Origin: Patescibacteria group bacterium
GTDB taxonomy: Bacteria; Patescibacteriota; Minisyncoccia; Phycocordibacterales; UBA9973
Assembly (NCBI GenBank): GCA_028865035.1
Contig: JAGWLB010000003.1
Span: 2,247-66,246, forward strand
Direction: 5' to 3'
DNA length: 64,000 nucleotides
Shown: positions 3,104-24,200 of the stretch, in pieces
Numbering within the stretch: the first letter of the stretch is position 1
How the letters are laid out: each line of letters starts with the position of its first letter
Translations under genes and position numbers: made by a program
The notes under the pieces: generated by a model
What the model was told of the DNA's origin: nothing
Seen by the model: only the letters and a program-made list of their open reading frames with translations
The model's database searches: none

Positions 3104-4318
3104 ATGCAAAAAAGTGCTGAAAATTTATTCCTTCATGCAGATGGCGACTCATTCTTTGTGGCCTGCGAGGTGTCGCAGCATCCTGAGTATATTGGTAAGC
3201 CAGTAGTAGTAGGTGAGGATCGTGGCATAGCAGTAGCTATGAGCTATGAAGCGAAGAAGTTAGGTGTGACTCGTGGTATGCCAGTATTTAAAATTAAAAA
3301 ACAATTCCCTAGTGTAGTTATACTTCCACACCATTTCGACTTATATAGGAAAATCTCAAAAAATGTTCACGATATACTGCTATCATATCTAGAAGAAGTT
3401 GAGGTGTATAGTATCGATGAATGCTTTGCTACTGTGAAGCAGTCAGATATTCGTTTTGCTGGAAGTGCAGATGAATTAGTAAAATCTATAAAAGATGAGA
3501 TACAAAATACTTTAAATGTGACGTACTCTTTTGGCCTAGGTCGCACTAAAGCACTTGCCAAGACAGCTTCCAAATTAAATAAACCAAATGGAATGGTTAT
3601 ACTTACGAATATTAAAGATGAAGAACAAGCACTTAAGAAAACTTCTATCGATGATATCTGGGGTATAGGTAGACGTACCGTCCCACGCTTAAGGGATATG
3701 GGTATGAAGACAGCATATGACTTCGTACACTATAATAGTGACTATATAAAAAAGTATTTTTCTTCACCATTGTTCCATCTTCAGCAAGAATTATCTGGTT
3801 CGTCTATATATGAACTTGACCCCAATGCTGACCCCAGAGATCAGAAGTCTATACAATCTACAGCTACATTCAAGCCTTCAACGAATGATCTACAAATAAT
3901 TTTTACTGAACTTTCATCGAATGTCGAGAGAGCCTGTGAACATGCTAGAAGCCTAGGTCTTATGACTAACTTCATTTCGTTTTTTATTAAAAATACTGAT
4001 TTTATCCATCATGTAGGTAGTAGCCACTTAACTCTTTATACGACTGATCCAGGAATTATATTGAATAAATTAGAGCCACTATTATATGAATTGGTAAGTA
4101 AATTAAAAGATAATGAAAAAATACGTTCGACAGGGATTACCTTACATAATTTACGTAAATATGAAAATGTCCCTAGAGATCTATTTGGTGTACAAGATGG
4201 ATATGAAGCTAAAAATATTATAGAAGAAGTAAGCGATAGAATAAGAGAGAAATTCGGTCACGATGCTCTAAAGAGGGCATCGTCACTGAAAGTGGCAAAG
4301 AAAGAAAATAGGAGCTAA
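3104..4318 (+). CDS. dinB: DNA polymerase IV, Y-family translesion polymerase
   Basis: LFLHADGDSFFVACE..KPVVVG..GIAVAMSYEAKKLGV..GMP and a DECF motif. Length of 404 aa is typical for the family. Confidence 0.85.
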   Translation: MQKSAENLFLHADGDSFFVACEVSQHPEYIGKPVVVGEDRGIAVAMSYEAKKLGVTRGMPVFKIKKQFPSVVILPHHFDLYRKISKNVHDILLSYLEEVEVYSIDECFATVKQSDIRFAGSADELVKSIKDEIQNTLNVTYSFGLGRTKALAKTASKLNKPNGMVILTNIKDEEQALKKTSIDDIWGIGRRTVPRLRDMGMKTAYDFVHYNSDYIKKYFSSPLFHLQQELSGSSIYELDPNADPRDQKSIQSTATFKPSTNDLQIIFTELSSNVERACEHARSLGLMTNFISFFIKNTDFIHHVGSSHLTLYTTDPGIILNKLEPLLYELVSKLKDNEKIRSTGITLHNLRKYENVPRDLFGVQDGYEAKNIIEEVSDRIREKFGHDALKRASSLKVAKKENRS

Positions 4319-10294: not shown

Positions 10295-10519
10295 ATGCAT
10301 ATTATGAGAAAAGAAAAATCATTATTTATTATAGGTTTATGGATTATTTTGTTGCCCCTGTCTGGTTTTCCGTCTTCTTGGAAAACGCTATTCTTTTTTA
10401 TTACTGGTTTACTCATCATCTACATTTCATACCTTTTTTACATGCAAGCAAAGAAAAATGTACCTAAAGATTTAAATCAAAGTAAAACCTTCATAGATAA
10501 CATAAGTAATGGCGAGTAA
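10295..10519 (+). CDS. Small two-TM membrane protein, hypothetical
   Basis: 74 aa with two hydrophobic helices. Overlaps the next gene start by 11 bp. Confidence 0.25.
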   Translation: MHIMRKEKSLFIIGLWIILLPLSGFPSSWKTLFFFITGLLIIYISYLFYMQAKKNVPKDLNQSKTFIDNISNGE

Positions 10520-21659: not shown

Positions 21660-23339
21660 TTATTTATTTATAAATAATTTTGCTAATCGAATATCTTCAA
21701 AAGAAAGTTTGTATCCCTGTTTTTCAAGGATTAATTTAATTGGAGATAACTTACCAATCTCATCATTTTTCAAGGTACGGTTCGCTTTATTTACAATAAT
21801 AATATCTTGTTGTTTAGGTTTAATATGATTAATCTTTGTTTTTGGAAATTTATCTACAATTTGTTCAATATGATAAACTATAGTACTTTTAGTTAAACCC
21901 CTTTCTTTCGCTATCTTGTTAATACTCATACCTTGATTCAATAAATTCATTGTAGTAATTATTGTTGGAATTTTATCTGATGTCTTTGTTTTATTATTAT
22001 TTTTATTAATTACTCCGCCCATACGTACGATAAAAGAATGTTCTAATTTTTCTTGTTCACTTTTACTTAATTTACCAAAGTAGACAAGTTCATTCTGTGT
22101 ACTTTCATTACGAAGTTCTTTGTCGAATTGAAGTACCTTAGGATCTACTCGTAAGGCATCTGGATTAAATCCTACTAATTTTATTCCAGTCATAGTTTTT
22201 ACTCTTGAAAGTGCTACATAACCCATACCATACGCAAATGTATGAGTAAGGTCTATCTCTGCGTTATCAAGTGACATACCCTGACTTTTGTGTATTGTAA
22301 TAGCCCAAGCTAGACGTATAGGAAGCTGACTAATAGAAGCTTTATTTTTACCATTTTCTTCTATTGCCCAAGTTTCTTTGTGGGCGTATATTGTCTTACC
22401 ATTATAGAGCTCTATAATAGGAGTATTATCGGACGGCAGAAAATCTATAACTTTACCTCTAGTACCGTTAACATATCCTTCTTCAAAATTATTTTTTATA
22501 CACATTATTTCAGCTCCAACTTTAAGATGTAATTTCTCACTAGCAAGACAACTTTTTCTTAATATTTCAACTAATGGCTCGGGCCCAGTTGATGACATAT
22601 AAAATACCTTCTCATCAGTTTTTAAATTCGAAAGTTCAGTATTGTTTTCTATATCAACATTCGTATTATGGGTATATAATTTTGTTGGAATAATGTTATT
22701 CGGCAGCTCTGCATTTAATCGATTTTTTAATTGTTCATAATGCAACTCTTCCACTGTGTCACTGCGTATTGCATTTAAAATCGATGTCAGTTCTTCGTCT
22801 ACTTGTCTATGTTGTTCTGTAAGATAACAAATGGCCGGATTCATTATACGCCAAGCTTCACTATATAAGACCATATCTTTCAAATTTGTTTCATTTGAAC
22901 GATTTATAGGAGGTAATTGAAAAAAATCCCCAGAGATAATTATTTGCAAACCCCCAAAAGGTTTATCGCTTCTCTTGAACCTGCGACATACTCGTTCTAT
23001 TATATCTAGTCTATGTGCGTGAAGCATCGATACTTCATCGATAATAAGCACCCTAGCTTTCTCAAAACGTTTCCATAAATATTGTTTACCTTCTAATACC
23101 TCTAGATCATACTCATCTATTTTATCTTTTATACCAATTCCAGCCCAACCATGTATCGTCATGCCATTCATATGAGTAGCAGCTATGCCTGTTGAAGCTG
23201 TAATAGCCACAGGTATATCGTGGTTTTTGAGATATGATATGTATTCATTTAGAAGATAAGTTTTACCACTTCCAGCACTACCAGTAAGGTATACATTTAC
23301 TCCTGTTTTCATAATAGCAAGTGCTTGTTTTTGAGTCAT
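21660..23339 (-). CDS. Pif1-family (RecD-like SF1B) DNA helicase with a C-terminal helix-turn-helix domain
   Basis: Motif I LTGSAGSGKTYLL, motif II IIDEVSMLHA, motif III ISGDFFQLPPI, and a late SQGMSLD. The C-terminal ~100 aa contain SINKIAKERGLTKSTIVYHI, an HTH. 559 aa, 22 bp downstream of lexA. Confidence 0.75.
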   Translation of the reverse strand: MTQKQALAIMKTGVNVYLTGSAGSGKTYLLNEYISYLKNHDIPVAITASTGIAATHMNGMTIHGWAGIGIKDKIDEYDLEVLEGKQYLWKRFEKARVLIIDEVSMLHAHRLDIIERVCRRFKRSDKPFGGLQIIISGDFFQLPPINRSNETNLKDMVLYSEAWRIMNPAICYLTEQHRQVDEELTSILNAIRSDTVEELHYEQLKNRLNAELPNNIIPTKLYTHNTNVDIENNTELSNLKTDEKVFYMSSTGPEPLVEILRKSCLASEKLHLKVGAEIMCIKNNFEEGYVNGTRGKVIDFLPSDNTPIIELYNGKTIYAHKETWAIEENGKNKASISQLPIRLAWAITIHKSQGMSLDNAEIDLTHTFAYGMGYVALSRVKTMTGIKLVGFNPDALRVDPKVLQFDKELRNESTQNELVYFGKLSKSEQEKLEHSFIVRMGGVINKNNNKTKTSDKIPTIITTMNLLNQGMSINKIAKERGLTKSTIVYHIEQIVDKFPKTKINHIKPKQQDIIIVNKANRTLKNDEIGKLSPIKLILEKQGYKLSFEDIRLAKLFINK

Positions 23340-23361
23340 ATATATACTTACTATTATAACA

Positions 23362-23928
23362 TTAGTATTTTCTAATGACGGCCTTTACAACCGCAGTAAT
23401 AGTTAAATAATTTGTTGGATATATTGGTTTAAAATCTTTGTTGGCTGGTTCAAGCCAAACTTTATCTCCAGATTTTTTAAAATATTTCATTGTAAATTCA
23501 CCGTCGACATTTGCTATAACTATCTGTCCGTCTTTTGCTTTATCTGTCTTCTCAACAAGAACCATATCACCATCAGCTATATGAGCATCGATCATTGAAT
23601 CTCCATCAACTTCAAGCATAAAAGTGTTATCTTTTTTGGTTACAAGATAATCATCAAGATTTACTGTATCGTTTAACTCCTCTGTGACATCTGAGGGAAA
23701 TCCTGCTTTTACTAAACCAAGTAATGGAATACTGTCAAAAGATTCATTTGGGATAATTCTTCCTAGATAATCTTTGGTAACCAAACCATTGTCTATAAAT
23801 TTATCAACAAGACGTGCCACAGCATTTTTGGATTTAAATCCGAAAATTTTCATCATTTCCGTGTAAGTCGGCATACGCTTATGTAGTTGGTGGAATGAAG
23901 TTAATTTATTTTTGTATTCGTTATACAT
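23362..23928 (-). CDS. lexA: LexA repressor (S24 peptidase)
   Basis: N-terminal winged HTH (PTYTEMMKIFGFKSKNAVARLVDKF). C-terminal S24 fold with the GDSMIDAHIADGDMVLV Ser nucleophile region and a downstream Lys. 188 aa. Confidence 0.8.
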   Translation of the reverse strand: MYNEYKNKLTSFHQLHKRMPTYTEMMKIFGFKSKNAVARLVDKFIDNGLVTKDYLGRIIPNESFDSIPLLGLVKAGFPSDVTEELNDTVNLDDYLVTKKDNTFMLEVDGDSMIDAHIADGDMVLVEKTDKAKDGQIVIANVDGEFTMKYFKKSGDKVWLEPANKDFKPIYPTNYLTITAVVKAVIRKY

Positions 23929-23934
23929 ATGAGT

Positions 23935-24129
23935 TTAAAATTGCGGTAATACGGTAATGAATCTATTTAAGAAATTCTTACGAGAATGTTGGCGCATTTT
24001 TTTCTGGAGTATCTTGTGATTCATTGCTTCTTTCTTGTATTCTACACCTTGTAGAATTTTCATATCTATAACTTTATTTATAGAATGTAACTCTTTTTCA
24101 ATTATTTTAATATATTGTTCTCTGTTCAT
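23935..24129 (-). CDS. Small basic hypothetical protein, first gene of the lexA operon
   Basis: 64-aa ORF that starts about 35 nt downstream of the LexA-box promoter and ends 7 bp before lexA. Confidence 0.35.
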   Translation of the reverse strand: MNREQYIKIIEKELHSINKVIDMKILQGVEYKKEAMNHKILQKKMRQHSRKNFLNRFITVLPQF

Positions 24130-24171
24130 ATATATAATATTGATTATTTGCTTATAATCGACTGCATATAT

Positions 24172-24200
24172 AGTATATGTGAACGCTCGTTCACAGTCAA
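24172..24200 (-). promoter_or_regulatory. SOS promoter with a Cheo-type LexA box GAAC-N4-GTTC embedded in its spacer, read on the minus strand as TTGACT-17-TATACT
   Basis: On the minus strand: TTGACT (24195-24200), 17-nt spacer GTGAACGAGCGTTCACA, and TATACT (24172-24177). On the plus strand the spacer reads TGTGAACGCTCGTTCAC (24178-24194), containing the perfect palindrome GAACGCTCGTTC (24181-24192). Confidence 0.65.

Follow-up and report, generated by a model that had tools for sequence, protein, structure and literature searches.

Background

In Escherichia coli, lexA is autoregulated, and a passenger downstream of it on the same strand, dinF, is induced by read-through. The LexA box of Gram-positive bacteria, of the type named Cheo, has the form GAAC-N4-GTTC, and the flanks of the Bacillus consensus extend it to CGAAC...GTTCG. 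For Patescibacteria, too, a LexA-binding motif and a regulon have reportedly been published, by Sanchez-Osuna, Barbe and Erill (Environ Microbiol 2017). This study of their SOS network is cited in PMC8565304 and PMC7739468. Here, we analyze the lexA locus of a Patescibacteria group bacterium, contained in a window of 64,000 nucleotides (nt) of contig JAGWLB010000003.1 (the window is the whole stretch of DNA that was analyzed). In this locus, a small open reading frame (ORF) of 64 amino acids (aa), lexA and a gene for a Pif1-family helicase follow one another on the minus strand, behind a promoter with a Cheo-type box in its spacer.

The closest described counterpart is the Gram-positive LexA (DinR) of Bacillus subtilis and Clostridium, which controls its own gene from an operator that has the same core and overlaps the core promoter; GAACN4GTTC, the consensus for LexA of B. 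subtilis, is identical to the core found here (PMC4234289). The flanks differ from those of Bacillus, reading GT-GAAC-G..C-GTTC-AC and forming a palindrome of 18 base pairs (bp). As in the lexA-dinF pair of E. coli, an autoregulated lexA is combined with a passenger on the same strand; unlike in that pair, a small gene precedes lexA, the passenger varies by species and the helicase keeps a private promoter. An autoregulated lexA with a Cheo-type box is already known and ordinary. The novelty lies in a small gene that accompanies lexA, a phased box of the DnaA type and a slot with varying repair genes, which amount to a variant and not to a new kind of system.

To our knowledge, next to nothing has been described of accessory factors of LexA that are encoded by cells, and the one published case that we found comes from a phage. 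The small protein gp7 of phage GIL01 forms a complex with LexA, strengthens its binding to DNA and slows its self-cleavage (PMC4551915). The phage-encoded gp7 offers an example of the part that the small protein described here might play as a partner of LexA. Nor do we know of any description of a lexA promoter that carries a conserved DnaA box. Co-regulation by DnaA and LexA, with both boxes in one promoter region and a modulation of SOS genes by DnaA, is on record for uvrB, recN and dinJ of E. coli (PMC6015884, PMC8203912). By comparison with these three genes, the promoter concerned here is that of lexA itself, and it carries a single consensus box, helically phased and conserved across a large clade.

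Overall, we consider it likely that the small ORF and lexA form an autoregulated pair, that the helicase has a promoter of its own to which read-through from lexA is added, and that a DnaA-type site supplies a second input.

The lexA promoter and its predicted operator

The features of the small ORF-lexA transcript are the following.

24200-24195, minus strand: -35 hexamer TTGACT, conserved as TTGACn or TTGCAn in related loci
Between the -35 and the -10, minus strand: 17-nt spacer GTGAACGAGCGTTCACA
24178-24195: predicted LexA operator, 18-bp palindrome TGTGAACGAGCGTTCACA, covering the spacer and the last base of the -35
24181-24192: core of the operator, GAAC-N4-GTTC, reading GAACGCTCGTTC on the plus strand
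24177-24172, minus strand: -10 hexamer TATACT
24129-23935, minus strand: small ORF, 64 aa, ending 6 nt before lexA
23928-23362, minus strand: lexA, 188 aa, Peptidase_S24, TIGR00498

On the minus strand, the 18-mer is laid out as TGTGAAC-GAGC-GTTCACA from 24195 to 24178. The original prediction, which placed the palindrome exactly in the 17-nt spacer between TTGACT and TATACT on the minus strand, was accurate throughout, and its order of genes (a small basic 64-aa ORF, lexA, a 22-nt gap and a Pif1 helicase with a helix-turn-helix (HTH) tail) agrees with the ORFs and the Pfam domains. The small ORF and lexA are served by one possible promoter, which scores 10/12 in a promoter scan and the spacer of which is filled by the predicted operator; transcription is predicted to start near 24165, at the usual distance after the -10.

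Taken by itself, the single occurrence of the 12-mer core in the window lacks significance: by chance, 0.43 matches are expected per window, and at least one arose in 32 of 100 shuffles. The 18-bp pattern TGTGAAC-N4-GTTCACA appeared in none of the 100 shuffles, even with one mismatch allowed. Up to two mismatches, the window contains no LexA box beyond this one.

To follow the operator among relatives, we used 80 species-level loci around lexA homologues (L001-L080, 788 kilobases (kb)) and further loci (L081-L205), for a total of 1.4 megabases (Mb) of fetched DNA. Upstream of the operon, TTGACnGTGAACGnnCGTTCACATATAcT is nearly invariant in approximately 75 of the 80 species loci and in 33 metagenome loci, within flanks that diverge, and the same promoters share the pattern TTGAC/TTGCA-GTGAAC-N4-GTTCAC-TATAMT. 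Within the 788 kb, 73 of the 76 GTGAAC-N4-GTTCAC sites (at most one mismatch) lie at the promoter of the lexA operon; the remaining three all belong to a single locus, L048, where they precede lexA itself, dinB and a gene for a secreted protein. The metagenome scan, which required a box followed by the start of a -10, recovered 33 promoter-embedded sites, approximately 21 of them before a homologue of the small ORF, approximately nine before a leaderless lexA and one before dinB (L103). Another box precedes dinB in L137, outside the promoter filter of that scan. Thus, the box stands before a canonical SOS gene, dinB, in three loci (L048, L103 and L137), whose dinB promoters have the operator design in common; in L048, the IMS domains of this Y-family polymerase were confirmed downstream of the box. 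In four other loci (L059, L063, L102 and L144), dinB directly follows lexA.

An 18-mer well above chance expectation, a promoter and operator that are almost invariant in more than 100 loci and the recurrence of the design at dinB together make autoregulation of LexA via a Cheo-type box a well-supported reading of these sequences. The reading of GAAC-N4-GTTC as a LexA operator situated so as to block RNA polymerase at the small ORF-lexA promoter, in line with the LexA box of the original prediction, is strengthened by this near-invariance and by the assignment of the lexA product to its equivalog family. In the sampled DNA, the LexA regulon looks very small, comprising the lexA operon, dinB and little else.

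LexA and its genomic setting

The lexA product scores 138.4 bits against the NCBIfam model TIGR00498 (lexA equivalog), above the cut-off of 110.95, over residues 18-187, and matches Pfam Peptidase_S24 at 2.6e-31; its closest solved relatives, the LexA structures 3K2Z, 1JHF and 3JSO, are likewise aligned over residues 18-187. The cleavage apparatus is, to judge by its residues, intact: A75 and G76 of the Ala75-Gly76 cleavage site and S111 and K148 of the Ser111/Lys148 dyad are invariant in 24 homologues. This LexA is 100% identical to a protein of a metagenome-assembled genome of a Patescibacteria group bacterium, and its 3,500 relatives come from Paceibacteria/Nomurabacteria-like genomes. The rest of the window consists of housekeeping genes, for ATP synthase, enolase, pyruvate kinase, mur and fts functions and tRNA synthetases, and the locus therefore belongs to the chromosome of a Paceibacteria/Nomurabacteria-like member of the Patescibacteria and not to a prophage. 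A prophage repressor in place of LexA was considered and rejected, the equivalog cut-off being passed and the locus lying among housekeeping genes in more than 100 species.

By the example of the LexA family, a LexA dimer on the 18-bp palindrome would occupy the 17-nt spacer and exclude RNA polymerase, so that the transcript encoding the 64-aa protein and LexA would repress itself. After DNA damage, RecA would stimulate self-cleavage at Ala75-Gly76 by Ser111/Lys148, in analogy with other LexA proteins, whereupon the promoter would open and the transcript would be derepressed.

The Pif1 helicase as a passenger of lexA

Two features concern the helicase.

23361-23353, minus strand: predicted extended -10 promoter TGTTATAAT of the helicase, adjoining the lexA stop codon and separated from the helicase ATG by 13 nt
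23339-21660, minus strand: Pif1-family helicase of superfamily 1B (SF1B), 559 aa, starting 22 nt after lexA

By its domains, the protein is a member of the Pif1 family of SF1B helicases: it matches PIF1 (PF05970, 3e-36) and Pif1_2B_dom (PF21530, 1e-10), carries HTH_40 at its C-terminus (residues 461-553), and its Walker A and B motifs, GSGKT and DEVSM, are readable in the sequence. The closest solved relatives are human PIF1 (1.5e-75), then yeast Pif1 and Bacteroides Pif1 (approximately 5e-51). With these three it shares the SF1B core and the Pif1 2B domain; unlike them, it has the added HTH_40 and adjoins lexA.

The helicase follows lexA in 41 of the 105 loci with enough downstream sequence, all of them from close relatives, with LexA identities of at least approximately 71%. 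Elsewhere, the slot after lexA holds dinB, O6-methylguanine methyltransferase (PF01035, with gaps down to 1 nt), MazG, a DNA methylase (N6_N4_Mtase), RhuM/Fic, or unrelated or convergent genes, and in some species nothing on the same strand.

The gap before the helicase appears to contain a promoter. In 33 of 42 loci, the pattern TGnTAYAMT precedes the ATG of the helicase by 5-13 nt, with approximately 0.003 occurrences expected per 25-nt window; two more of the 42 loci have it further upstream, ahead of an insertion. Where the gap to lexA is longer (L011, L019 and L024), the extended -10 moves with the helicase. Three orthologues are uncoupled from lexA, one by a terminator and a convergent gene (L029) and two by a different neighborhood (L203 and L204), and the extended -10 is retained in each of them; a search upstream at up to two mismatches gave no LexA box for any of the three. 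Sampling from the side of the helicase gave the small ORF and lexA upstream in two of four orthologues. In the window, there is no LexA box at the helicase's own promoter, the only box lying approximately 830 nt upstream, at the operon promoter. A conserved extended -10 within a 22-nt gap implies that the helicase is not simply the third gene of the operon; as far as these comparisons go, it is a clade-specific, loosely attached passenger with an independent promoter.

Such a promoter would be normal for this genome. Only 2 of the 51 genes of the window have a Shine-Dalgarno-like sequence, and an extended -10 also stands a few bases before the ATG of other genes in the window (at the starts 3104 and 6162 and in the regions of 27328, 36968 and 48642). 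Leaderless mRNAs thus seem to be the norm here, and a helicase promoter yielding a leaderless or short-leader mRNA fits this pattern. By the same token, with so little use of Shine-Dalgarno sites, internal genes of operons should be translatable without one. Operon calling in such genomes requires caution: with promoters 5-8 nt from start codons and no Shine-Dalgarno sequence, a 22-nt gap can hide a full promoter.

We therefore weigh two relationships between LexA and the helicase. The small ORF, lexA and Pif1 could be a true three-gene SOS operon, with the helicase a selected member of the LexA regulon that, for example, clears G-quadruplexes or stalled forks; this is possible, but it is not the reading that we would choose. 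It draws on the short distance (14-25 nt from lexA to the start of the helicase in the majority of the 41 linked loci), on the dispensability of Shine-Dalgarno sites, on the frequent presence in the same slot of truly operonic repair genes (methyltransferase and dinB, with gaps of 1-12 nt), and on the lack of any predicted intrinsic terminator on the minus strand from 24200 to 21660, the boundary between lexA and the helicase included. The conserved private -10 inside the gap argues otherwise, as do a linkage that is patchy even among close relatives, the two of four helicase-side orthologues that do not adjoin lexA, and the absence of the box from every unlinked orthologue; nor did our literature search find a report of a LexA-regulated Pif1. 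In the alternative that we prefer, the loosely attached passenger, most helicase transcripts would arise at the private extended -10, with a predicted start near 23346, and have a short leader or none, and the missing terminator makes it probable that SOS derepression adds read-through transcripts from lexA on top of this basal level. Such read-through is plausible, and no other way is left by which LexA could act on the helicase. What stands of the direct control of Pif1 by LexA that the original prediction had put forward is, accordingly, a possible read-through; the private promoter and the three box-free orthologues speak against the direct form.

In three loci (L016, 1180-1310; L031, 6570-6700; L029, 7150-7276), hairpin-forming insertions of approximately 115 nt lie between the -10 and the ATG of the helicase. 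They have terminal inverted repeats, for example CCCGTTAGAGAT...ATCTCTAACGGG, and resemble miniature mobile elements.

A DnaA-type box upstream of the -35

A further conserved element precedes the promoter.

24218-24210, minus strand: DnaA-box 9-mer TTATCCACA (in its extended form GTTATCCACAG), separated from the -35 by 9 nt

The 9-mer matches the DnaA-box consensus, TTATNCACA, at nine of nine positions (PMC8203912). Among 109 unique LexA-box promoters, 92 have a DnaA-type box in forward orientation, which in 85 of these is exactly TTATCCACA. Between the box and the -35 lie 0-1, 7-11 (most often 9) or 18-19 nt, three spacings that differ by roughly one turn of the helix. The higher-GC relatives L129 and L157 carry TTGTCCACA, which we take to be the DnaA-box variant of high-GC bacteria, and in one locus the box is in inverted orientation. 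The element and the small gene go together: the former occurs in 87 of 90 promoters of operons that begin with the small gene and in all three operons in which lexA precedes it, as opposed to one of approximately nine operons devoid of the small gene and none of the dinB promoters. Across the window, DnaA boxes are not enriched; the lexA promoter has only a single one.

It is this co-occurrence that gives some force to another interpretation, namely, that the conserved GTTATCCACAG element is not a DnaA site and is instead the target of the small protein or of some other factor particular to the lineage. An unrelated, conserved small RNA gene that has an inverted copy of the 11-mer right behind its -10 points in the same direction. 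We nevertheless find this rather doubtful, since the match to the universal DnaA box is perfect, the relatives with higher GC content use what we presume to be the corresponding variant TTGTCCACA, and an asymmetric 9-mer suits a monomer such as domain IV of DnaA and not a dimer of 64-aa hairpins; moreover, the co-occurrence with the small gene may simply reflect shared ancestry. By way of DnaA, its putative binder, the box probably adds the status of replication to the lexA promoter as a further input.

The small RNA gene just mentioned is approximately 140 nt long and is conserved in L021 (approximately 3140-3330), L003 (approximately 10330-10500), L009, L015 and L032, outside the window. It is equipped with a TTGACA/-10 promoter and an intrinsic terminator of its own and bears the 11-mer in inverted form, CTGTGGATAAC, at the 5' end; it received no identity from Rfam.

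The small protein encoded with LexA

The small protein is basic, with an isoelectric point of 10.1 and 14 lysines and arginines to 6 aspartates and glutamates. Its homologues adjoin lexA in approximately 76 of the 80 species loci (tblastn, 33-81% identity), nearly always immediately upstream and mostly with gaps of 0-17 nt; in three more distant lineages (L095, L157 and L182), the order is swapped and the small homologue immediately follows lexA. A profile search of 1.84 billion representative proteins gave 290 clusters of small proteins with an expectation value (E) of at most 1e-3, almost all of them 60-75 aa long, with a conserved core, L..LN..ID.KI..G..Y..EA..HK.L, after which come a basic segment and a tail of hydrophobic character. 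The AlphaFold model is a hairpin of two helices (3-27 and 32-60, mean predicted local distance difference test score 84.5) with a low-confidence tail.

The homology search thus established the ORF as real and conserved beside lexA, and it matched no annotated family: Pfam, NCBIfam and PHROGs gave nothing, either for the single sequence or over 20 members. A profile run against all PDB chain sequences gave no match either, the presence of a gp7 chain among them being unconfirmed, and Foldseek against PDB folds returned only generic helical hairpins at E>1. This is, then, an unannotated family of small proteins tied to lexA across many uncultured species in either order of the genes. Judged by these loci, the evolutionarily conserved unit is the small ORF together with lexA, whichever comes first.

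Inhibitors of the YneA, SosA, ChiZ and SidA type have a transmembrane segment and often a LysM domain. The small ORF resembles their genes in sharing a LexA-repressed promoter and the neighborhood of lexA, but it is located on the lexA mRNA itself and not on a divergent one. The original prediction saw in it a possible analogue of such division inhibitors, which is not supported in that form: the protein of the window has no hydrophobic stretch of at least 18 residues, and hence no transmembrane segment, and no LysM, only an amphipathic tail of 12 residues, and its ORF appears to be co-transcribed with lexA. In its broader form, that of an SOS effector that arrests the cell cycle by inhibiting division or the initiation of replication, in the manner of YneA, SosA or SidA or of the DnaA-controlled hairpin protein Sda, and that is no partner of LexA, we regard the idea as unlikely. 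The ORF is under a LexA operator, its product is short and basic and has at its C-terminus a tail that is both hydrophobic and amphipathic, and SOS division inhibitors typically are small membrane proteins encoded beside lexA (PMC6051672). The upstream DnaA box, too, recalls sda, which is directly regulated by DnaA (PMC8203912). A weak relative, P0310, has a transmembrane-like segment at its end, and hydrophobic tails are seen in other members of greater length. Set against this are the missing transmembrane segment, LysM or other Pfam domain in the protein of the window, the lack of similarity to known inhibitors in PDB sequences or folds, a position upstream of lexA on the same mRNA, by which the protein would be made at the basal level of LexA at all times, and a linkage to lexA in either order, as expected for interacting partners.

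A protein that is made whenever LexA is made fits a partner of LexA better than an inhibitor reserved for damage, and the shared mRNA, together with the linkage kept in either order, favors a factor associated with LexA. It is this role that we favor for the small protein on the grounds of gene anatomy, a damage-only division inhibitor being less likely.

P0310 itself (107 aa), the weakest of the listed relatives, is encoded on a contig (L201) with a run of small unannotated genes on the same strand and no lexA nearby. It may come from a phage or mobile region or be a false hit, and we treat it as doubtful.

A possible two-input lexA promoter

Beyond the autoregulated pair, the helicase passenger and the DnaA-type input, the comparisons conceivably point to a more general design, which we offer tentatively. 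In it, the lexA promoter of a large part of the Patescibacteria would be a two-input switch that responds to damage via LexA and to replication via DnaA, the 64-aa protein would be an obligate companion of LexA, and the position after lexA would be a plug-in slot for repair genes. The companion could tune the binding or cleavage of LexA, as does gp7 of the phage, or act as a checkpoint effector on replication or division; the slot would take Pif1, dinB, a methyltransferase or MazG. A DnaA-type site on the master SOS promoter, if true, would link the initiation of replication to the set-point of the SOS response in tiny genomes with few regulators.

DnaA usually binds boxes in pairs or clusters, and the lone box at the lexA promoter is a weak site by the standards of E. 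coli; this is one of the points that weigh against the overall model of an autoregulated lexA pair with a passenger helicase and a DnaA-type input. Another is that neither recA, uvrA nor other canonical SOS genes were found in the window or the fetched loci, so that support from the regulon comes from dinB only; a search of the 1.4 Mb for recA and dnaA with E. coli sequences as queries gave no matches. Furthermore, read-through into the helicase is assumed solely from the missing prediction of a terminator. Finally, Pfam did not report LexA_DNA_bind for the N-terminus of LexA at E<=0.01; the NCBIfam and PDB alignments do extend over this domain from residue 18 onward.

That the palindrome serves a regulator different from LexA, or arose by chance, is highly improbable: its 12-mer core alone is expected 0.43 times per window, but the 18-mer never arose in shuffles, over 100 lexA promoters share the palindrome with one another and with dinB promoters, its core is identical to the B. 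subtilis LexA consensus, and, with equal conservation where no helicase follows lexA, the HTH_40 tail of the helicase was rejected as its binder.

Other features of the LexA-box promoters

One more feature lies in the leader of the small ORF.

24142-24159, minus strand: weak AU hairpin GAUUAU-AAGCAA-AUAAUC in the 5' leader of the small ORF

The arms of this hairpin show compensatory changes (GAUUAU/AUAAUC, GAUUUA/UAAAUC and GAUUAAU/AUUAAUC) in the closest relatives only, and the hairpin is not conserved more widely. A subclade of five loci (L042, L044, L047, L055 and L075) has an asymmetric operator, GTGTAC-N4-GTTCAC, with TTGCAT as its -35 and the DnaA-type box at 18-19 nt. In L048 (2195-3342), the third LexA-box promoter, TTGACTGTGAACGACTGTTCACGTTATAAT, located after TTTTCCACA, drives a gene for a secreted protein of 369 aa with no Pfam domain, an unexpected candidate SOS gene.

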